Below, in pieces: positions 15,401 to 59,455 of a stretch of DNA of 64,000 nt. This DNA is from a virus. The translations under genes were made by a program, and so were the position numbers. Where the stretch lies: UHGV virus genome UHGV-0140522; one strand, written 5' to 3'. The notes under the pieces were generated by a model. It worked only from the letters and a program-made list of their open reading frames with translations, did not search any database and was not told where the DNA came from. Within the stretch, counting starts at the first letter, position 1; every line of letters starts with the position of its first letter.

Positions 15401-17214
15401 CCCTGGGCAACGTTGATAACACGCACGCGCATTGGTTCCAGATCTGGCTCGGTAATCGTCCAGACGCCATTCATAACCGGCATATCACCAGAATTGAGCG
15501 CTTTGGAGAAGGTTACTTTGGTAATGTCTTCCCCGGTCTCAAGAATATCGCGCTCAACGATTTCTCCTTCCTGATTCAAGATCCGGATGTAGCTACCAGC
15601 CTTATTCAGCGTAACCGGTGCGTCGAGAGTGATGCTGTTCTTTGTGAACGCCACAATGCGGCCAGAGTTGCGTTTACCAGCACGGTATTTGTTCTGAATC
15701 AGCACCGTTTCGCCCGGCATCAGGAAGGAAGCATCCAGCCCTGCCGTAAAGCTGATAACGTCGGACTCCATGCGTGCGGTATACAGCAGCCACAGACCGA
15801 CACGATGCGCCTGGCCACGGCTTGTACAGCCGAACGCAACCACTTCGGTTTTGCGCTCGCCATAACGACGCATCGCCTCCTGGTCTTCGACGTACTCGAT
15901 GTTCTGCTTGTAGCCGTCTTCCTTGTTGTTGTAGGTCACAAGAGCCACTGACGGACGGTCTTTACGCGCAGATCCCTTGTAACTGAACATGCCATCTTTG
16001 ACGTTCGCGTTGGTGAACATCATGACCGGATCTGACGGACTATCCTGCATGACGTTAACCATGCCGCCAGCCCAGAAGACCATTCCGCGGAAGGCGCCAG
16101 CGATATCCTGAATCAGTCGGTACGCATCCTGACGGCTGGTGATCTGGGTGTTGATAGCGAAGCGCTTCTCTTTGCCACCGAAACCATCGTCAATCTCTTC
16201 GTCGCAGTAGCGCCCAATCTGGTAGATCTGCCCGAGGTCAATCATGGACTCAGAAACGTACTGCCCCAGGCCATAACGGGCGTTGGTAAGCAGGTCGAAG
16301 AGAATCCAGGCAGGGTTGGAAGATGACAACAGCTTGAATGTGCCATCCCATACGCCGATATAGGTGTTTGTGTGCTCGTCGTAGTTGGACGGGACTCGGA
16401 TCTTAAGGCCACGCACCAGATACGAACGAGACGGCATCGAGCTGCCGAACTGCTCTGAGTTGACCTTGAGACCAACCAGCGCGGAGTTCGGGTAGTTCAT
16501 CGGCGTATCAACAATCTCACCGATAGAGTCCACCCACGTATCGTTAAAGATGTACTGAGTGTTGCTGTCATCGGTCAGACGAAGCACGCGAACCTTGTAG
16601 GCACGACCTGGCTTGGGCAGTTTTAGCTCATAGCTGCGGTAGTAGACGCCCGTCTTTTTTGCCGTCAGCGTAATTTCGGAAGTGCTCTCCCCTTCTGCGA
16701 TGGCGTCCTTGAAGGCATTATCGCCATTGGCAATCTGGAATTTGTAATTCACGGTCGTACCGTTGGTATCACCGGTCTTTTTGTCGATGCTACGCAGAGA
16801 CGGGAACTTAAGAATGACGCGGACACGGTCTGCCTCATCGTTATCGATGGCAATCGTAACGTCGTGCATTCTTTTCAACTGGATGTTGACTGACTTCGGC
16901 GTTTCAACGAAATCGAACCCGGACATCGGCGTCTGGTCTTGTGAACCATCGCGGAAGTCCCACGTGATACCGCTAAAGTTTGGAGACCCGTCTTCGTTAA
17001 GGATTGGCAGATCATCAACGAAGATCGACTTTGCGCCATCCACCAGCCCGCCAATGACACCCTCCCCGAGCAGGTCGAGGATGGACGCCATAGCACGCGA
17101 GTTTACGGTATCGTCGGCTTCAACCGGCGTGCGGCTGGAGCCACTGCTTTTCTTACCGCCAGCACCTGCAATCAGGAGAGGCAGTCTCTTCTTCTTGAAC
17201 TGTTCCATGTTCAA
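12493..17214 (-). CDS. central tail fibre / host-specificity protein (lambda J-like) with an inserted coiled-coil repeat region
   Basis: A 1573-aa protein in the position after an I-like gene. It has a long internal heptad-type repeat block (…EARATADEALSxQIxxLxAxxxxDIxAA…). Confidence 0.85.
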   Translation of the reverse strand: MNMEQFKKKRLPLLIAGAGGKKSSGSSRTPVEADDTVNSRAMASILDLLGEGVIGGLVDGAKSIFVDDLPILNEDGSPNFSGITWDFRDGSQDQTPMSGFDFVETPKSVNIQLKRMHDVTIAIDNDEADRVRVILKFPSLRSIDKKTGDTNGTTVNYKFQIANGDNAFKDAIAEGESTSEITLTAKKTGVYYRSYELKLPKPGRAYKVRVLRLTDDSNTQYIFNDTWVDSIGEIVDTPMNYPNSALVGLKVNSEQFGSSMPSRSYLVRGLKIRVPSNYDEHTNTYIGVWDGTFKLLSSSNPAWILFDLLTNARYGLGQYVSESMIDLGQIYQIGRYCDEEIDDGFGGKEKRFAINTQITSRQDAYRLIQDIAGAFRGMVFWAGGMVNVMQDSPSDPVMMFTNANVKDGMFSYKGSARKDRPSVALVTYNNKEDGYKQNIEYVEDQEAMRRYGERKTEVVAFGCTSRGQAHRVGLWLLYTARMESDVISFTAGLDASFLMPGETVLIQNKYRAGKRNSGRIVAFTKNSITLDAPVTLNKAGSYIRILNQEGEIVERDILETGEDITKVTFSKALNSGDMPVMNGVWTITEPDLEPMRVRVINVAQGEAQGTFDVTVVQNNASKYEAIDNGATLIPENNTVLDPTYSKPTNLQVTEGTYISSPGNLSIKLVATWEGKSAEYWISWRRSDENNVSNWQSARVTEEQFEILNIAENGQYDIQLYAVSFSGKKTDIISTVYQVKGTMTPPGSPTSLTAVGDYRNVILNWVNPDSIDLDHINVYASQTNDLETAKLIAEAASTTFTHAGLGDSETWYYWVRAVNKRGMLSPPNSNLGTEAMTRDVLSFLTGKITSSELGQELLEEIDSKASQDAVDAINKQMEESLKELDQSVADLDSKLEDTSGRLEQAQNDLKNEVSGTLDKVNDALQQVEDSNAALVELQETVSEQGKAVAGAVEAAHAALDNASALIAEEREARVEGDKANAKQIEAMKSSVDDSVAAVEEMKKTVAEVERASAEVSTNIEALAKTNIDLALRQDEDQHKQMVNNAKIATTQKTFADDMSAMASKVEEIRAEIGEDIRASILEETTARVEADKAIATHISKLEAQLNDDISAAIVAEQEARATADEALSRQITTLQAKVEGDISAALTEEQIARATADEALSKQITQLKAQTGEDIKAAVAAETQARTDADGALASQISSLKAQTAEDIKAAVATETKARTDADSALAGQITNLQAQTGKDINAAITSEATARANADGALGKRIDTVKAEVDGNSALIQEQAKAIADTDKKVSAAWTLKMETSTSGGQKYVAGIALGIDSTGLSQFLVQADRFGLVNSVNGKITTPFVIENGVAYMNGAWIKDGTISNAKIGNVIQSNDYVSGRSGWSIRKDGTAEFCNGTFRGNVDANSGTLNHVTIADTCIINGTLRAEKIIGDVVKAAGREFPHFKNPTTGEYLYANGSLTVTVHDDQSFDRQIIIPPILFSGSSYESNTSNDVWDECTFKVTHNGSLIYQATSSGKQECYNAIFDMPAGRGAKTLTFTASTRGNSGGWPRSRVSDLLVIVVKKSTSGIVIS

Positions 17215-17229
17215 AAATTTCCCTTCTTA

Positions 17230-17817
17230 CTAAAGCTGGTCGATGGTGATCGAAGAACTCACAACCTGTGAGCCGACCAGAATTTCCTCGCCATAAATGA
17301 GCTGAACCGGGTTGCCCTGGTTAGTGGTGTTTTGTGGCCCGTCGAAATAAAACGAGTTCGAGTTATCTGCCTGCCTTACGCTGTCATTGGTCGCCTGGGG
17401 CGAAATTAACTGCGAAATACCTCCCATCATTAGCGACAAGCCGAGCGGGGCCAGCGCTGGGAACCAGAATGAGGCAACCATGACGAGTGCCCCTACGACT
17501 GTCTGGAACCAACCAAAAGCCTTACCGCCACTACCGCGAGGAACCGGCGTGATGCGGATCTTCGCGATGTTGTCGGACTGCCCCATCATTTGAAACTCGC
17601 TCTCATCAACCGACCACTTATGCCCCTGCTTATTGGTGATCTGGATGTGGTAACTGTCGTAGGTCTTCATGTTGCGTTTCATCCAGGCTTTTAAGCCCGG
17701 ACGGTTGGCTTCGACCAAATCCAACGCCTGTTTGGTGTTGCGCACTTTTAAATGCCAGTGGCGGCCGAAATGTCTGGCCATCGGGCCACCAAGTTGCACA
17801 TGAACTAACTCAGACAC
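17230..17817 (-). CDS. tail assembly protein (lambda I-like)
   Basis: Size (195 aa), position between the K-like and J-like genes, and a central hydrophobic segment all fit lambda I. Confidence 0.65.
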   Translation of the reverse strand: MSELVHVQLGGPMARHFGRHWHLKVRNTKQALDLVEANRPGLKAWMKRNMKTYDSYHIQITNKQGHKWSVDESEFQMMGQSDNIAKIRITPVPRGSGGKAFGWFQTVVGALVMVASFWFPALAPLGLSLMMGGISQLISPQATNDSVRQADNSNSFYFDGPQNTTNQGNPVQLIYGEEILVGSQVVSSSITIDQL

Positions 17818-18629
17818 GTTTCATCTCCCTTGAGTAAGTCTCTGTGACGCAGGTGGTGCGTCGTGTGTTTCTGGTACATGCCACCGTAATAAGCGCGACA
17901 GCTCAGACGGTCGATCTGGTGGTGCAGGATCATTCCGTCTCCGATGTACACCGCGCAGTGGTCAGGCATCTTTCCGTACTGAATGAAGAAGACGTCACCA
18001 CGCTGGGGTTCCGTCCCCGGCGCCAGACGAACAAGCCCTTCATTGCGGTAGTTCTGATCGAGAATGTCGGTATCGCCCGTGTACCACGATGGAATATGCA
18101 GGTGCGGGTTTGGATTCAACTCGACGTTGAACTCACGCTTCAGGTAGTCGCGGCACAGCATCCAGCAGTCGAAGACACCAAACACATAGGGCCGCCCCAG
18201 ATAAGGCATCTCAAAGCCGTCTGGGGTGATCACATTCATCTCACTGAAGTGAAATGGCGCATCGCCCTCGACGTTCTTCCGAACAGCCAGAATCAGCCAC
18301 GGAACTTCCGTTGCCTCGCATCCGGCGCGGTCGGCGTCTGACGCTTCAGCTGATTCGTCAGTGTGGGAGTGCCAGATGGCAACCACGTCTCCCGCATCTT
18401 CCGCTGCGATAATGTCGTCAGCGTGCATAACAAACGTGTTTTCCGGGTTTTCCGACACGTTCCGGGCTTCCATGAAGCGATATTTCTCGCCAGTGGTACG
18501 TACCAGAAAGCCACACGCTTCGTTCGGGTAGCGTTTGATGGCTGTCAGATAGATTTCCTGCATAACGTCCGAACCAAGCTCAGGGAAAGCTCTATTACCC
18601 ATAACGCGTTGCTCCAATGAACCCGCCAA
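17805..18629 (-). CDS. tail tip assembly protein (lambda K-like; MPN/JAMM plus NlpC/P60 domains)
   Basis: Contains a JAMM-like HSH..D motif (AIWHSHTDES…D) and an NlpC/P60-like Cys/His pair (FDCWMLC … HCAVYIGDGMILHH). Confidence 0.8.
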   Translation of the reverse strand: MAGSLEQRVMGNRAFPELGSDVMQEIYLTAIKRYPNEACGFLVRTTGEKYRFMEARNVSENPENTFVMHADDIIAAEDAGDVVAIWHSHTDESAEASDADRAGCEATEVPWLILAVRKNVEGDAPFHFSEMNVITPDGFEMPYLGRPYVFGVFDCWMLCRDYLKREFNVELNPNPHLHIPSWYTGDTDILDQNYRNEGLVRLAPGTEPQRGDVFFIQYGKMPDHCAVYIGDGMILHHQIDRLSCRAYYGGMYQKHTTHHLRHRDLLKGDETCLS

Positions 18630-19293
18630 AGTGGATTACGCCATTGGCAAAGTAGTTACGGCGTGCGTTGCATGAGTCGTAGCGTTTCGTGCAGTAATCC
18701 GCGCCTGACATGGTGGTTTGCTGGTTGTTTTTGTCGAAATAGGGGCCGGTGTAGCCGCACTCTGGACCGCGGTATTTCCACGGGCAGGTGTTTTTGATGA
18801 TCTGGCGGTACGGCAGCTGCACGCCCATCAGATCGAACACACTCGACAGCTCAAACTCGACAACCTCATGGGTTTCGAGAGTCTTCTGTTCGATGAACCA
18901 CATCTCATCCGGGAAGTGCTGATTTGGATCTGCGGTTGGATTCCCGTCTTTGAAGTTGGCCGCGTCGAGAAAACGCGCCAGCGTCATCTTGCGGATGATG
19001 CGACAGCCAACCAGATCGTCGTTTGCCTGAACTTCAGCGGAGACAGTTCCGGCAAAGTTGGAGACCTGGATTTTTGGACGCGGCAAAGTACCCTGACCAG
19101 TCTTATCAAAGCCTGACGCCTTGATTGGCCACGGTTCGTAGGACACGCCTTGCCAAACGACTGGCTCCATCAGTTCGTTTGTACCAGCGTGGAAAAACAG
19201 CTTGCCCCCAGAGGTGGTGTTCGACATATCAAGTTCGAACAGCTCAATGAGCGCGGAGGGCGACAAGCTCTGAATATCAGCTTTAATACCCAT
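18595..19293 (-). CDS. minor tail protein (lambda L-like)
   Basis: C-terminal Cys cluster (CPWKYRGPECGY…DYCTKRYDSCNARRNYF). The start at 19293 is preferred because it has an AAGGAAG RBS and gives 232 aa. The ORF track extends to 19326. Confidence 0.7.
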   Translation of the reverse strand: MGIKADIQSLSPSALIELFELDMSNTTSGGKLFFHAGTNELMEPVVWQGVSYEPWPIKASGFDKTGQGTLPRPKIQVSNFAGTVSAEVQANDDLVGCRIIRKMTLARFLDAANFKDGNPTADPNQHFPDEMWFIEQKTLETHEVVEFELSSVFDLMGVQLPYRQIIKNTCPWKYRGPECGYTGPYFDKNNQQTTMSGADYCTKRYDSCNARRNYFANGVIHFGGFIGATRYG

Positions 19294-19382
19294 CGTTTCT
19301 TCCTTGAAATAAAGAGGCGCCAACATCCTGTCAGCGCCTATAGATAATAGTAAATAAGTGCTTACTTATCTAGTGGGTTGAA

Positions 19383-54240: not shown

Positions 54241-54272
54241 AAAATGATAGGTAAATACTTACCTATCATTTT
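54241..54272. promoter_or_regulatory. extended 32-bp copy of the palindrome, AAAATGATAGGTAAATACTTACCTATCATTTT
   Basis: The longest copy. It defines the extended consensus and lies about 125 bp upstream of the gene starting at 54116. Confidence 0.55.
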
Positions 54273-54510
54273 GTGACAAAAATCCAATGTCACGCTTGTG
54301 AGGCATATCGGCTGCGGAGTAGGCGGCGATCAGAGCAGGCCGTTCAATAGATCTGCTTTGAGAGAGGATTGGACCAAGCCCTAGATAACGAGAGAGCACG
54401 GTGCTAATACCCAAGACGACAACAGACGAGTTCATGGCAACATTTTGGAAGGTATCTTCGTATCATGATGTGGTTAAATAGACACAATTTAACCCAATGG
54501 AATTTTAGCC

Positions 54511-55113
54511 ATGCTAACCTTCTGGCACGAATATTCAGATCTCATCTCCGCATTTTTAGCGGCTCTTTTAGGTGGCTGTTTCACGATGAAAGGAGTGACA
54601 GCTCAGGTGAAACAGCAGGCAAAACAGCAGGCAACAGCGGCCAGAGAGAAGCGTATAACAACGCTATTGGGTGTCAGAGAGGAAATAGACTCACTGATTA
54701 AGTTGTATAAGGCCAGAATTGAAGAGGAAATCAAACAATACGACCGGAACTCACCGTTCGATAACATTTTCCCCATTACTCAAAACTACTTCACTTTCTA
54801 TGAAGCTAACTCGGCATCTCTACCTGAAGTTCATAGAGAAACACTATCAAAAATTGTGGCTTTTTATACAAGCGCAAGAAGCCTAATTGATTCCTATCGC
54901 GGTAATAATGCCCTTATCGAAAGGCTGGACTCCACGCAGGTTGCCAGTGACATTACTGGCAACAAAGAGCATCTTGCACACCTGAAAAGATACACAATCC
55001 TAGCCACAGAGTACGGCCGCGGATTAATGATGATTCATGAAGAGGTCATGCTGCGCTATAAACAGGTTATAGAAGCCATCGATGGTGAAATCTCGCAGCT
55101 ACAATGCAGTTAG
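54511..55113 (+). CDS. membrane-anchored hypothetical protein (200 aa); GC appears lower than the flanks
   Basis: N-terminal TM (LISAFLAALLGGCF). Two hairpins with a GTCCGCT/AGCGGAC stem follow at 55120-55200. Confidence 0.45.
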   Translation: MLTFWHEYSDLISAFLAALLGGCFTMKGVTAQVKQQAKQQATAAREKRITTLLGVREEIDSLIKLYKARIEEEIKQYDRNSPFDNIFPITQNYFTFYEANSASLPEVHRETLSKIVAFYTSARSLIDSYRGNNALIERLDSTQVASDITGNKEHLAHLKRYTILATEYGRGLMMIHEEVMLRYKQVIEAIDGEISQLQCS

Positions 55114-55247
55114 TACTACAGCCTGTCCGCTTATGGCGCGTAGCGGACTAGCTCATTGGGCAGAAGGTCCGCTCTGAGCGAGGAGCGGACATTCGCCCCT
55201 CTGTCGTATGTCCTTAAAGAGCGCACACCAGATATAAAAGAATTGCG

Positions 55248-56450
55248 TTAGTGTACCTTCCTATTTTGACGGGATGTTGCATATGTCATCACTACCGCCC
55301 CCAGTAGTAACAAACCACTTAAACCAAATGCACTTCTCCATCCCAGACTGTCGAATGCCAGACCTCCAGCCGTTGAACCAAGCGCAATCGATAGCTGGAT
55401 CACCGCAACCATGAGGCCACCACCCCTCTCTGCATCTTCGGGTAACGCTCGTGCTATCCATGTCCACCATCCTGTTGGCGCAGCCGTCGCAAGTAGCCCC
55501 CACAGGCTTAATAATACGGCAACGGCCCAGATGTGGTGTCCGACCAGCAGTAACGCACCAGTAATCGCGGCCATAAGCAACGGGATCATGATTAAGGTCT
55601 TGTAAAATTTGGCGTTCAGGAATGTTGAGACGATCATTGTGCCGACAAAACCTGCTATGCCTATTGCAAGCAAAATCAGAGAAAGGTTAGAAGGTCCCAC
55701 TCTGGTGACGCTCTCCAGAAAGGGGCGCACGTAGGTAAACAAAGCAAACTGTCCCATAAAGAAGAGCCCGCAGGCAAGCATTCCCGTTGGTACGATGGCA
55801 ACGCTGAACAGACGAAGCACAGACCCCTGTGGTTTTTGTGTTTTATCGCTTTCCATCGAAGGCAGGCTGAACCATTGCCAGATGAACGCAGCTATCGCAA
55901 GAGGGACGAGACATAAAAAGGCCCCACGCCAACCGACCGTTGTCCCCAGATAACTACCAAGCGGCGCAGCCACAACGGTGGCCAGCGCGTTACCGCCGTT
56001 AAAAATTGCCAGTGCGCGGGGAACCTGGTGCTGTGGCACGAGCCGAATGGCGGTTGCAGCCGACATTGACCAGAACCCTCCGATGACGACGCCAATCAGA
56101 GCCCTCCCCAGCATATAAATCGGATAGTCAGGCGCCATGGTGATAACTAACCCTGATATGGCCATTAAGACCGTTAGCCCAAGCAGAAGATATTTACGAT
56201 TCAGGTCTCCGGCAATATGGGAGATAGTCAGACTGGTCAGCACTGCCAGTGCGCCAGAGACGGCAATTCCTTGCCCTGCCAACCCTTCGGTAACGTGCAA
56301 ATCGCGGGCAATGAGCGTAAGCAGGCTGACTGGCATAAACTCAGAAGCGATCAGCACAAACACGCAAAGCGTCATGGCAAATACGCCGCTCCAGTATGCA
56401 TGCTTTTTTTCGTATGATGGTTTTAGACTTACAGTGGACATTATTAGCAT
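55248..56450 (-). CDS. MFS transporter (12 TM helices)
   Basis: About 400 aa with repeated hydrophobic helices and a GxxxD/RxGRR-like loop. Confidence 0.8.
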   Translation of the reverse strand: MLIMSTVSLKPSYEKKHAYWSGVFAMTLCVFVLIASEFMPVSLLTLIARDLHVTEGLAGQGIAVSGALAVLTSLTISHIAGDLNRKYLLLGLTVLMAISGLVITMAPDYPIYMLGRALIGVVIGGFWSMSAATAIRLVPQHQVPRALAIFNGGNALATVVAAPLGSYLGTTVGWRGAFLCLVPLAIAAFIWQWFSLPSMESDKTQKPQGSVLRLFSVAIVPTGMLACGLFFMGQFALFTYVRPFLESVTRVGPSNLSLILLAIGIAGFVGTMIVSTFLNAKFYKTLIMIPLLMAAITGALLLVGHHIWAVAVLLSLWGLLATAAPTGWWTWIARALPEDAERGGGLMVAVIQLSIALGSTAGGLAFDSLGWRSAFGLSGLLLLGAVVMTYATSRQNRKVH

Positions 56451-56618
56451 CCCTTAATATCGAACCAGCCAGATTCAGGCGCAGTCGGGTCAGAAGTTAT
56501 TCAGGGAATAACGACATAATAGGTGGGTGAGAATATGGGGCGATGTGACATATTCGGCGTCACACCAGGCAGGTAAAAGCCACCCGTTTATGACAGGTGG
56601 CCTGGTAAACTTTTCGGG

Positions 56619-57770
56619 TTACCTTAAGTTTGCTTTGAAAAATTGCTCAAATTTGGCAAATGGGATCTTACCCGCAACGTTGTCGTACAGATCAACATGG
56701 TTTGCCCCAGGGACAATCACTAACTCTTTCTCTTTGCTGCCGATTGCCTTAAAGGCATCTTCAGCAAAATAGCGTGAATGGGCTTTTTCGCCGGTCACGA
56801 TGAGTGTAGGGATAGTAACTTCATTGGCGTAACTCAGCAGCGGCATATTCATAAATGACAGCGGCATGGTTGCGTTCCAGGCACCGGTTGAGTTGACCGA
56901 ACGCTCATGGAAACCACGCGGCATGCGGTAATAATCAAAGAACTCTTTCAATACTGGGTTAGGATTCGCGGGCAGAGTTTCCGGCAGAATACGATCGGAA
57001 GCGGTGACGTTGCCCTTCTCATCAACATAAATGTCATGCCCGCCTGGCGCGAAAGCGCCATTTTCCGCATCCTTCCAGCGCTGCGTGTTCAGATACTGCA
57101 ATACGGCACGACGATCGGCAGTGGTATAGCGGTCTTTGCCATCGCCCACGCCATGCCCCATCGCACGGCTCATGTCATACATCACGCTGGTCGCCACCGC
57201 CTTGACACGCGTGTCCATCGCGGCGTCGTTTAAGGCCATGCCGCCCCATCCGCAGATACCGAGCAGCCCGATACGGTTGCGATCCACCTCTTTTTGCAGG
57301 CCTAAGAAATCAACCGCCGCGCTGAAATCCTCGGTGTTGATATCCGGAGATGCGACGTTGCGCGGGTAGCCGCCGCTTTCGCCCGTGTATGAAGGGTCGA
57401 AAGCCAGAGTGACAAATCCCTGTTCAGCCAGCGTCTGCGCATACAGGCCGCTGGATTGCTCTTTCACCGCCCCGAAGGGGCCGCTAACAGCAATAGCTGC
57501 CAGCTTGCGATCACCACGATCCTTCGGGATGTAGAGATCCCCGACTAAGGTGATCCCGTATCGGTTCGGAAAGGTCACCTTACGGTGATCAACTTTCGTG
57601 CTCTCAGCAAAAGTTTTATCCCATTTTTCGACCAGCGAAACGGGCGCGTTCGGATTGGCTGTATCAGCGTAACTCATATTTGTGACTCCACTTAATGATG
57701 CGCATAACAACAGGGCGGGTATCGCAGTTGTCAATTTTTGGGTGAAAGCAGTCATCAAAATCCCCTTCAT
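56619..57770 (-). CDS. secreted alpha/beta hydrolase (dienelactone-hydrolase-like)
   Basis: Signal peptide (MKGILMTAFTQKL…ALLLCASLSG). A GxCxWG nucleophile-elbow-like motif (LLGICGWGG) is present. Confidence 0.65.
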   Translation of the reverse strand: MKGILMTAFTQKLTTAIPALLLCASLSGVTNMSYADTANPNAPVSLVEKWDKTFAESTKVDHRKVTFPNRYGITLVGDLYIPKDRGDRKLAAIAVSGPFGAVKEQSSGLYAQTLAEQGFVTLAFDPSYTGESGGYPRNVASPDINTEDFSAAVDFLGLQKEVDRNRIGLLGICGWGGMALNDAAMDTRVKAVATSVMYDMSRAMGHGVGDGKDRYTTADRRAVLQYLNTQRWKDAENGAFAPGGHDIYVDEKGNVTASDRILPETLPANPNPVLKEFFDYYRMPRGFHERSVNSTGAWNATMPLSFMNMPLLSYANEVTIPTLIVTGEKAHSRYFAEDAFKAIGSKEKELVIVPGANHVDLYDNVAGKIPFAKFEQFFKANLR

Positions 57771-57925
57771 AAAACGTGCCAGAAACAGGTTTCCTACGGA
57801 CAACGCTGCTGTGCTTTGTTGCAATGCGCACATTATAGTTAGCAGAAATAGTACTGATTAGAGGGTGAAAAATGCTAAGATTGATAACATATTGTTCTGA
57901 ATTGTGATGCGGCAGCAGGGGAAGG

Positions 57926-58813
57926 ATGATGGCGAAACGGGAAAACTATAACGATCTCTATCTGTTTATGCAGGTCGTGCGAGAAGGGAGTTTTACTGCC
58001 GCCGCGCAGAGGCTTGGCCTGGCGCAGTCAGGAATTAGTCGTGCAGTGCGCGAGCTGGAAGAACGACTGGGCGTGCAGCTTCTGGTGCGTACCACGCGCA
58101 AGTTATCGCTCACCCATGCCGGCGAGTTGCTCTATCGAACCGTCGAATCTGGATTTGACGCTTTAGATATGGGGCTTGCCACGCTGGCCCATTATCGCCA
58201 TACCCCATCGGGTACGGTCCGTATTAATGCCAGTCAGCACGCCATTGATAAAGTGCTGCTGCCGAAGCTGGCGGTGTTTAAACAACGCTACCCAGATATT
58301 CGGCTGGAGCTCATCAGCGAAAGCCGGTTTGTCGATATTATTGCTGAGCGCTTCGATGCCGGTATACGTCTGGGCTCGGAAGTAGGTAGCGGTATGGTCG
58401 CTGTGCGCATTTCGCCCGATATGGAGATGGCCATTGTCGGCACGCCCGAGCACTTTCGTCGCTACGGATTTCCGCAAACTCCCTCCGATTTAGTTATTCA
58501 TCCCTGCATCGCTTACCAGTTTGGAGACGGCAGCCTGTATGCATGGGAACTCAATCAAGACGGTAAAAAGATAACCCATCAACCTCAGGGACAATGGGCC
58601 TTTGCTGACAGCTATATGGAAGCCAAAGCCGCCCGGCTAGGCCTGGGACTGGCTTATGTTCCGGAGGAATTAGTTTCTGATGATATAGAACAGGGGGCGC
58701 TGATCAGAGTTTTGCAATGCTACAGTCAGCGCCTGGAAGGTTCATATCTCTATTATCCGCACCGCAATGTGTCACCCGCTCTAAGAGCGGTTATCGATAC
58801 ATTGAGAATTTAA
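57926..58813 (+). CDS. LysR-family transcriptional regulator
   Basis: N-terminal HTH (…FTAAAQRLGLAQSGISRAVRELEERLGVQLL…) and a C-terminal substrate-binding domain. The gene is divergent from the hydrolase gene. Confidence 0.85.
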   Translation: MMAKRENYNDLYLFMQVVREGSFTAAAQRLGLAQSGISRAVRELEERLGVQLLVRTTRKLSLTHAGELLYRTVESGFDALDMGLATLAHYRHTPSGTVRINASQHAIDKVLLPKLAVFKQRYPDIRLELISESRFVDIIAERFDAGIRLGSEVGSGMVAVRISPDMEMAIVGTPEHFRRYGFPQTPSDLVIHPCIAYQFGDGSLYAWELNQDGKKITHQPQGQWAFADSYMEAKAARLGLGLAYVPEELVSDDIEQGALIRVLQCYSQRLEGSYLYYPHRNVSPALRAVIDTLRI

Positions 58814-58819
58814 GGGATA

Positions 58820-59439
58820 AAGATGAGGTGGTTCGCAGGCCTGGGTAATAGTTGGAAAACAACGTCCGCTCCTGGCACATTGAAGACATTACGATGGGCG
58901 ATTTTTCCCCTCACGCGTGTGCGTAAATATTAAAATTTTTTCTAGAAAAGAAAAACTTACTTCCCAGAACAGGTTTTAATAAAACCTGAACTGAACGAAC
59001 GAAGTGAGTGAAGTTCACCTCGAACGAAGTGAGAGGTTGTCTTTTCAGGTAATACTCTCCCAGGGAGGTGAGTACAAAATTCCCTCACCAACCTGGTCGT
59101 TACATAACCTGAAAAGTTATGACCTAAGTCTACTGCCAGCTTAGGCTTGGGAAGTTATGGATGACAGCACCCCAGAACCGAGATCTTCCCACACTTTATG
59201 AAGGGGAGTACTGGATTCAACCTCTCGAAACACTCCAGACTCGACAATCATAAAGTGACCTTTCTCTCTGCCCACTTTGGTTCCCCCTTCCCCAACCCCT
59301 AAACGGTGCTGGTTCTACGCTGGTAGTGAGCTTTTTTAAACCTGACGCCAGTGACGCTATCCCCCACCCATCAGGTCGAGCTGCCGGAATCAATCCGGAA
59401 AGCGGGTAGATTTTATCACTGGCGATCTGCGTTTTAAAT
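58820..59439. other. structured non-coding region of about 600 bp
   Basis: No ORF. It contains several short inverted repeats (gtgaag-ttcac, ctccc-a-gggag, ggtgag…ctcacc) and a duplicated cgaacgaagtgag. Confidence 0.4.
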
Positions 59440-59455
59440 GGTAAGTACTTACCGA

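Follow-up and report, generated by a model that had tools for sequence, protein, structure and literature searches.

Inside the phage genome UHGV-0140522, of which a stretch of 64,000 nucleotides (referred to here as the window) was analysed, lie three genes for a major facilitator superfamily (MFS) transporter, a secreted hydrolase and a LysR regulator. These genes form a unit of 3673 bp at 55191-58863, here called cassette B, which is preceded by a smaller cassette A on the plus strand (54375-55124). Together with the short hairpins that bound them, the two cassettes make up a variable segment, 54351-58879, which is best described as an array standing in place of most of rnhA, the gene for RNase HI. 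A preliminary description had drawn the island more widely, at 54273-59439, but the breakpoints of relatives place both of its ends inside those limits. The window itself can be assigned to the SSU5/pHCM2-like phage-plasmids. Its flanks are collinear with Salmonella phage SSU5, the S. Typhi element pHCM2 and IncFIB phage-plasmids at 96-99.8% identity, and share with the SSU5/pHCM2 group the order phrog_10411 gene, 76-aa gene, Dam and exonuclease. Around 700 related IncFIB plasmids, labelled 'non-mobilizable' and found in Citrobacter, Enterobacter, Salmonella, Klebsiella and E. coli, correspond to this SSU5 group of phage-plasmids.

Within cassette B, the MFS transporter gene occupies 55248-56441 on the minus strand (open reading frame (ORF) 55248-56450; MFS_1, Pfam E = 6e-39). 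On the same strand, the gene at 56619-57755 (ORF 56619-57833) encodes a secreted alpha/beta hydrolase with PETase, dienelactone-hydrolase (DLH) and Hydrolase_4 matches, which has a Sec-type signal peptide at its N-terminus if started at 57755, as annotated homologues are. The LysR gene (57929-58813, plus strand; ORF 57926-58813) has HTH_1 and LysR_substrate domains and is transcribed divergently from the adjoining MFS and hydrolase genes, a layout consistent with a LysR-regulated divergent operon. The ORF list and domain matches agree with the preliminary description on these three genes and their positions. NepI-like, UilS-lactonase-like and YafC-like NCBIfam matches were considered as guides to a more precise function and rejected, as all fall far below the curated cut-offs, and only generic names are therefore justified. 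Judging by domain content, cassette B would provide a lysogen with a LysR-controlled secreted esterase/lactonase-type hydrolase and a transporter.

ORF and domain scans also bore out the earlier statement that the island has no transposase or integrase: neither was found among its ORFs, 54351-58879 contains no transposase, and no integrase domain occurs among the ORFs of 52-62 kb, the range to which the IntI scan was confined. No tRNA lies within 52-62 kb either, so that both hallmarks of a tRNA-linked integrative island, the tRNA and the integrase, are missing there.

In SSU5, pHCM2, E. coli phage Cyrano and Klebsiella pJN2-26, an intact rnhA is found between the phrog_10411 gene and the 76-aa gene. 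At the same place, the window has a 3' remnant on the minus strand (54262-54350), made up of the last ~33 codons and diverged sequence, which was recognised by a tblastn match of SSU5_090 (54262-54360) and by alignment of relatives. Since only these codons and the upstream non-coding region of the gene are kept, the island replaced most of rnhA. SSU5_090 (L001 2260-3024; 254 aa, GTG start) exceeds the rnhA genes of Cyrano (197 aa) and pJN2-26 (195 aa) by ~58 codons. Its annotated N-terminal extension, which is matched by window positions 58914-59018, overlaps a conserved non-coding tract and is probably an over-extended start.

This slot is filled by different genes in different relatives, as the cargo interpretation of the preliminary description led one to expect. 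Eleven other cargo sets occupy it: two hypothetical genes, with or without IS5; one small ORF in two different versions; three hypothetical genes; two GNAT acetyltransferases; IS110 with DUF262/GmrSD; IS110 with a hypothetical gene; a flavin oxidoreductase with a hydrolase and LysR; a BCCT transporter with DUF2254 and an Oxidored_FMN fragment, the commonest set among contigs encoding a 200-aa protein identical to that of cassette A; a further 2.8-kb set; and rnhA itself. None of 715 related plasmid records carries the three-gene block in the slot. The rnhA slot can accordingly be regarded as a genuine hotspot of exchangeable cargo. No record in the phage and plasmid collections covers more than 53% of 53.5-60.5 kb, and the cassette joined to the phage-plasmid backbone was not found in IMG/VR, where only 2 contigs have the slot.

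Cassette A consists of a single ORF of 200 aa (54511-55113, from the ORF list). The preliminary description had taken this ORF for an AT-poorer part that completes the island. Its region is instead the most AT-rich part (GC 0.43-0.46), and the ORF belongs to a separate cassette kept in Citrobacter, Enterobacter and Salmonella relatives, although absent from SSU5 and from the Salmonella plasmids pCFSAN076210 and pCFSAN006211 (L010 and L011). Its presence in most relatives marks it as the older of the two cassettes. The predicted protein has a hydrophobic N-terminus and no match in Pfam, NCBIfam or PHROG. An identical protein is indexed in 1368 blocks of a public collection, nearly always in SSU5-like contigs, and the ORF is a widespread phage-plasmid accessory gene.

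The ends of both cassettes are marked by two related 24-nt hairpins. H2, on the left of a cassette, reads GTCCGCT-N-TGAGCGA-NN-AGCGGAC, and H1, on the right, GTCCGCT-NN-TGGCAC-NN-AGCGGAC. The two frequently form a doublet, separated by an 18-nt spacer, and the repeat is otherwise almost absent from the window. Read on the plus strand, the array opens with a degenerate H2-type hairpin at 54351-54374 (ATCTGCT-T-TGAGAGA-GG-ATTGGAC), in whose loop, at 54367, the homology to L010 and L011 stops. Cassettes A and B are separated by a doublet at 55125-55190, composed of an H1 (55125-55148; GTCCGCT-TA-TGGCGC-GT-AGCGGAC), the 18-nt spacer and an H2 (55167-55190; GTCCGCT-C-TGAGCGA-GG-AGCGGAC); as DNA, this doublet folds at -24.5 kcal/mol (z = -4.7). 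The right end of cassette B is an H1 half-site at 58864-58879 (GTCCGCT-CC-TGGCAC, then A), joined to the backbone sequence TTGAAGACATTACG.

When the window was compared by pairwise BLAST with ten relatives, the junctions fell at these hairpins. For most relatives, the left-hand stretch of backbone homology extends to 55189-55195 and the right-hand one begins at 58859-58865; SSU5 and two Salmonella plasmids diverge sooner on the left, at 54331-54367. Seen from the other side, homology to the donors starts at 55161-55167 and ends exactly at 58879 in seven unrelated contexts. At the left junction, GTCCGCT-[C/G]-TGAGCGA comes from the backbone, while the next 2 nt and the right arm come from the cargo. 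At the right junction of the slot, TGGCAC-ATTGAAGACATTACG of the backbone is invariant, and each cargo brings its own H1 left arm and 2 nt (GTCCGCT-CC, TTCCGCT-TT, GTCCGCT-AT, GTCCGTT-CC, GTCTGCT-CC, GTCGGAT-TC, CTCCGCT-AA, GTCCGCT-TA, TTCTGCT-TT and GTTCGCT-TT). Since the outer arm follows the backbone and the inner arm the cargo, the crossovers lie in the loops. Comparison thus shows that cassette B was swapped in by two crossovers inside the hairpin loops, the left one within TGAGCGA and the right one within TGGCAC.

The same junctions speak to whether the window could be an assembly chimera of phage-plasmid and chromosomal reads. Such an artefact would account for why the exact combination of slot and cargo was not found in PLSDB, INPHARED or IMG/VR. 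However, both joints lie at hairpin positions used by the other natural cargos of the slot and both show the hybrid pattern of backbone arm and cargo arm, while the exact sequence shared at them, ~7-20 nt, is too short to have misled an assembler twice. A chimera is thus very improbable.

Beyond the phage-plasmid, cassette B was recovered end to end in several other replicons. It is 99.73% identical to a copy in a chromosome-sized contig (L012), 99.67% to one in plasmid unnamed1 of Kosakonia cowanii LT-1, 96.7% to one in an IncFII conjugative plasmid and 93.2% to one in the P2-like Yersinia phage vB_YpM_115; the chromosomal copies at ~99.7% are in chromosome-sized contigs including GCA_033907485.1. 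A further copy, in a short Logan contig, adjoins dinI. More distant copies, with 76-84% nucleotide identity, are found in Klebsiella and Kluyvera chromosomes and in a Pantoea megaplasmid, and a scan of a genome collection with the hydrolase gave, among the matches listed, chromosomal copies in Klebsiella, Kluyvera and Enterobacter that are 86-94% identical. Foreign origin, as the preliminary description held, is in keeping with the 99.7% identity to chromosome-sized contigs and the Kosakonia plasmid. The three genes are real, horizontally acquired cargo of a phage-plasmid, and cassette B as a whole is a recent import from a Kosakonia-type enterobacterial chromosome or plasmid.

In the 33.7-kb P2-like Yersinia phages vB_YpM_115 and vB_YpM_117, cassette B lies between the tail-fibre assembly gene and the sheath gene FI, which is the Z/fun hotspot of P2. 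Phage vB_YpM_115 (L017; OR545056, record 15615-19318) was isolated on Y. pestis, and metabolic cargo of this kind is unusual for a P2-like phage. Its sister phage vB_YpM_46 has a different gene between hairpins identical to those of vB_YpM_115, and phage P37 is without any slot.

The hairpins extend well beyond cassette B. A scan of IMG/VR for exact H1 returned at least 120 contigs, of which 80 were fetched. About 25 of these are P2-like, and in them H2 and H1 stand on the two sides of a variable cargo of 0.8-4 kb located between FI and G; the pair surrounds cargo in 14 P2-like contigs and in P2 itself. Another ~25 are lambdoid prophages with an H2/H1 slot that has a Ren-like DUF977 gene on one side and the DUF968/HNH-antiterminator Q region on the other. 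This lambdoid slot (seen in L111, L119, L124, L126 and L129 among the ~25 loci) holds at least seven cargos, two of them common to P2-like phages or phage-plasmids. Cassettes of the hairpin family carry defence genes (PD-T7-1/5, HEC-06, DarTG, TIR and GmrSD) as well as metabolic and transport genes.

Clustering of cargos, followed by end-to-end comparison, identified three cassettes shared between unrelated backbones. The 3673-bp cassette B connects the window phage-plasmid with chromosome-sized contigs, two plasmids and a P2-like phage at 93-99.7% identity; a 2192-bp cassette with HEPN/RES-like and GNAT-like genes is shared by a phage-plasmid and lambdoid prophages (98.0%, no gaps); and a 984-bp cassette is shared by a P2-like phage and lambdoid prophages (99.9%). 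In all three, co-variation with the backbone is seen for the outer parts, [flank + left arm + N + TGAGCGA] and [TGGCAC + NN + right arm + flank], and co-variation with the cargo for the inner part, [NN + right arm ... left arm + NN]. The backbone ends are distinctive for each family: atctgaca-GTCTGCT-T ... AG-AGCGGAC-tgtcagat in P2-like phages, ccttcta-GTCCGCT-T ... AA-AGCGGAC-aaccacgc in lambdoid prophages and gcagaag-GTCCGCT-C ... AT-TGAAGAC-attacg in phage-plasmids. Rare variants of the H2 core (TGAGCAA and TGAGGGA) track particular cargos, which sets the left crossover within the first four or five core bases. Furthermore, an independent chromosomal indel between two otherwise nearly identical loci (L012, 4967-7260, and L014, 7184-7262) has its junction right after the TGAGCGA of H2. 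This indel consists of an additional gene, coding for 636 aa with a Y4bO_3rd domain, and a new H1-H2 doublet behind it, and represents the gain or loss of a cassette outside a phage.

That no independent case has a crossover outside the loops makes a site- or structure-specific exchange the most likely one. The explanation we favour, with moderate confidence, is a two-cassette array in the rnhA slot that is bounded by hairpins and swapped through loop crossovers, probably by an enzyme acting in trans. This enzyme would most likely be of host or phage origin and encoded outside the island. It would bind to the arms, crossing over would take place in the loop, and the difference between the two loop cores would bar events between H1 and H2. 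Two exchanges would then replace one cassette with another, much like recombinase-mediated cassette exchange between two non-identical sites, with the outer hairpin arm staying with the recipient backbone and the inner arm travelling with the cargo.

The main rival to such an enzyme is short-homology or illegitimate recombination, in which the hairpins would be REP-like 'linker' repeats shared by many replicons and no dedicated recombinase would be needed; the agents could be phage annealing proteins, RecA-independent microhomology joining or breakage stimulated by gyrase or the hairpins. The repeats are dispersed, extragenic, multi-copy and REP/BIME-like, the donor and recipient share only ~20-30 bp per junction, and illegitimate recombination is among the candidates listed for hotspot exchange by the authors of PMC13586616. 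However, wherever a transfer is informative, both crossovers fall in the loop cores of 6-7 nt and never in the 7-nt arms, which are conserved to the same degree; this rule holds for three cassettes with 2-5 backbones each and for the cargos that fill the phage-plasmid slot. At the crossover itself, the sequences match exactly over only 6-7 nt, and cassette lengths are kept to the base (2192 and 984 bp). These core-only crossovers argue against short-homology recombination, which we consider possible but rather doubtful.

Several points weigh against the favoured explanation. No recombinase was found among the top 25 of 56 Pfam families of the 60 cassette ORFs, and no unoccupied sites were recovered by pattern scans of the P2-like and lambdoid contigs, two points of which the first also fits recombination by short homology. 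The loop cores are the best-conserved part of the repeat, so microhomology alone could bias crossovers towards them. The right site of the phage-plasmid is only half a hairpin, with TGAAGAC in place of AGCGGAC, and more than 10 cargos have nonetheless been joined there; such a half-site, which short-homology joining would tolerate, is awkward for a recombinase that needs two symmetric arms. The relative orientation of H1 and H2 is read from the loops alone (20/24 identity when inverted vs 18/24 when direct). That the repeats described at P2 in 2004 are H1 and H2 was deduced from P2's own sequence, and the function of the cargo from generic domain matches, all under the curated NCBIfam cut-offs.

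The distribution of the hairpins places them close to known repeat families. On plasmids of Pantoea, Duffyella, Kosakonia, Enterobacter and Klebsiella, they lie outside genes and in multiple copies: the repeat is carried by 257 plasmids, at up to 11 places per record, nearly all of them (among the matches listed) with no annotated feature underneath, and a Kosakonia plasmid holds 6 copies in 20 kb. In E. coli, the doublet (query L002 14990-15075) is found in 377 of 5426 complete genomes, usually as one chromosomal copy, a rarity that would fit a location in prophage hotspots and not a native E. coli REP family. Extragenic and multi-copy on plasmids, and rare in E. coli, the family behaves like a REP/BIME-type repeat. 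Like REP, BIME and REPIN elements of Enterobacterales, H1 and H2 are short imperfect palindromes that often form doublets. They differ from these elements in belonging to a sequence family unlike E. coli REP and in marking where exchangeable blocks of genes begin and end on phages and plasmids.

REP hairpins are insertion targets of IS110- and IS3-family elements, and insertion sequences were found at H1 and H2 as well. An IS110-family element lies exactly inside the left H2 of L010 (2352-3872) and of L011, between TGAGCGA-GG and AGCGGAC, and an IS5 element sits at CTAG in the H1-H2 spacer of a Citrobacter relative (L004 3150-4085). The hairpins are thus also targets of insertion sequences. 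Capture of the cargo by an insertion sequence or transposon, for example by the IS110- or IS5-family elements in the slot of relatives, could be proposed from the precise positions of IS110 in the Salmonella relatives and of IS5 in the Citrobacter one. Nevertheless, these elements are additions to a pre-existing hairpin, no transposase is present in the island of the window or in the other six contexts of cassette B, there is no target duplication, and the flanks in P2-like phages are inverted (ATCTGACAG / CTGTCAGAT) and not direct. Capture of this kind is improbable. Single-strand transposition of the RAYT/IS200 type was considered too and is disfavoured, since it would move whole hairpins and only the inner arms do move; no Y1 transposase was found among the listed cassette families, in which no search was aimed at a RAYT flanked by repeats.

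The preliminary description had suggested another route, recombination at palindromes of the GGTAAGTACTTACC type on either side of the region. The two palindromes are indeed present, one of 32 nt with the core GGTAAATACTTACC at 54241-54272 (14-nt site 54250-54263, 1 mismatch) and an exact GGTAAGTACTTACC at 59440-59453, between the 76-aa gene and the former rnhA unit (SSU5 equivalent at L001 3446). The motif TA-GGTAAGTACTTACC-TA is also highly over-represented, with nine window sites at up to 2 mismatches (7440, 12418, 29474, 32915, 44770, 50891, 54250, 59440 and 60498) against 0.07 expected. It is, however, not specific to the island. All nine sites lie in short gaps 20-130 bp upstream of the starts of minus-strand genes, both copies beside the island are in conserved backbone with seven more upstream of backbone genes, and SSU5 has equivalent palindromes on both sides of its intact rnhA and also upstream of dam. 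The palindromes come to flank the island simply through its location within what used to be the rnhA transcription unit. None of 13 relatives has a breakpoint at a palindrome, as all breakpoints fall 80-580 bp inside them, with hairpins at the real junctions, and no palindrome of this type occurs where the cassette ends in the donor contexts. Recombination at these sites is therefore highly unlikely. The motif is more plausibly a backbone element of regulatory type, a candidate operator or promoter element.

Between the array and the right-hand palindrome lies a non-coding tract (58880-59455) that had been counted, as 58820-59439, as part of the island. It is structured, as the preliminary description said, with folding z-scores of -5.9 (minus strand) and -5.4 (plus strand), but it belongs to the conserved backbone: it is the former upstream region of rnhA and is present in SSU5, and a ~435-nt part (58946-59380) is 97% identical to Cyrano and 92% to Klebsiella relatives, against only ~80% for the genes on either side. 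The tract contains exact direct repeats, CGAACGAAGTGAG, at 58996 and 59021. An Rfam search of 53.9-59.9 kb returned only chance matches to microRNAs and small RNAs (E > 0.1) and left the tract unmatched. Its position directly upstream of rnhA in intact relatives suggests that it may be a replication origin or an undescribed RNA.

Among known systems, the Z/fun locus of P2 is the closest. As summarised in PMC8987985, fun(Z) of P2 is flanked by inverted repeats, for which site-specific exchange was proposed (Nilsson, Karlsson & Haggard-Ljungquist 2004). In the P2 sequence, these flanks read GTTTCCT-T-TGAGCGA-GA-AGCGGAA and GTCCGCT-TT-TGGCAC-AG-AGTGGAC, which is an H2/H1 pair. There as here, the pair bounds the cargo, cargo with identical ends is found in bacterial genomes and other mobile elements (for cassette B, seven contexts at 93-99.7%), and the 3.67-kb cassette B itself occupies the Z/fun slot of vB_YpM_115. 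The host of the cassette differs, being an unrelated phage-plasmid with its slot inside a disrupted rnhA and with half a hairpin as the right site, and so does the cargo, which is metabolic and regulatory here and serves phage exclusion in P2. Cassette B is one more of the inverted-repeat-bounded cassettes first seen at Z/fun, a group that now includes a phage-plasmid and also lambdoid prophages.

Integron cassettes, which IntI moves between attC and attI, are likewise swappable, promoter-independent units that stand in arrays and occur in many contexts each, and their folded palindromic site is also split on integration, so that a cassette carries part of its neighbour's site. In contrast, no IntI (among the ORFs of 52-62 kb) and no attI are present here. 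The sites are 24 nt long with 7-bp arms and have neither the R''/L''/L'/R' layout nor the GTTRRRY core of attC (57-141 bp), a cassette is flanked by two loop variants (H1 and H2), and cassettes are often multi-gene with their own regulator. The pdif modules of Acinetobacter plasmids resemble the hairpin cassettes in lacking a recombinase of their own, in having short inverted sites, in occurring on different plasmids and in the presumption of a host enzyme acting in trans (Xer in their case). A dif-type Xer site is 28 nt long, with 11-nt XerC and XerD arms and a 6-nt centre. The hairpins differ from this 11-6-11 design in having 7-nt arms around a 10-nt centre and in being hosted by enterobacterial phages, and inspection of the junction sequences against the dif consensus revealed no likeness to dif, cer or XerC/XerD sites.

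Morons and defence hotspots of phages (PMC9122126, PMC13586616, PMC9600943) share with the rnhA slot a fixed site in a temperate-phage backbone where genes are rapidly exchanged, and many cassettes of the hairpin family carry defence genes as well. Near-identical accessory and defence loci have been reported in unrelated mobile elements (PMC9122126, PMC13586616). The studies of P2/P4 hotspots state that the mechanism of exchange is unknown and mention no hairpins or palindromes (Rousset et al. 2022, PMC9122126; a 2026 NAR study, PMC13586616), and for SSU5-like phage-plasmids there is a general statement on plastic loci and one insertion locus for antibiotic resistance genes (PMC9600943). None of these papers mentions flanking hairpins, whereas the junctions are here resolved to the nucleotide. 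The H1 and H2 sequences were not found in the literature searched, which did not include Nilsson 2004 or Odegrip 2006, and the hairpins appear to be undescribed in phage-plasmids and lambdoid phages.

It is conceivable, though we advance it as a tentative reading, that one loop-specific system shuttles cassettes among temperate phages of at least three unrelated families, and between these and plasmids and chromosomes of Enterobacterales. The slots of P2-like (Z/fun), lambdoid (ren-to-Q) and SSU5-like (rnhA) elements would then share H2 and H1 as exchange points in an integron-like economy without a linked integrase. Satellite phage P4 (L259, NC_001609; one genome checked) has no H1/H2-type hairpin anywhere, its gop-beta-cII hotspot included. 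If a shared system of this kind is real and the lack of hairpins in P4 is general, this could explain why hotspots free of hairpins, such as those of the P4 reference genome, trade no cargo with P2, an absence of exchange reported in PMC13586616.

In summary, the interest of this locus lies less in its three genes than in the hairpin rule they share with other cargo. An SSU5-like phage-plasmid can acquire an ordinary chromosomal unit of regulator, enzyme and transporter and pass it on through infection. Cargo in three phage families, on plasmids and in chromosomes has one and the same pair of 24-nt hairpins at its ends, which offers a candidate answer, at the level of nucleotides, to how hotspots exchange their genes. 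The hairpin rule makes this open question testable and also provides a simple sequence criterion for delimiting cassettes in genome data. Shared by P2-like and lambda-like phages and a phage-plasmid, the hairpins point to a common route by which genes move between unrelated mobile elements.

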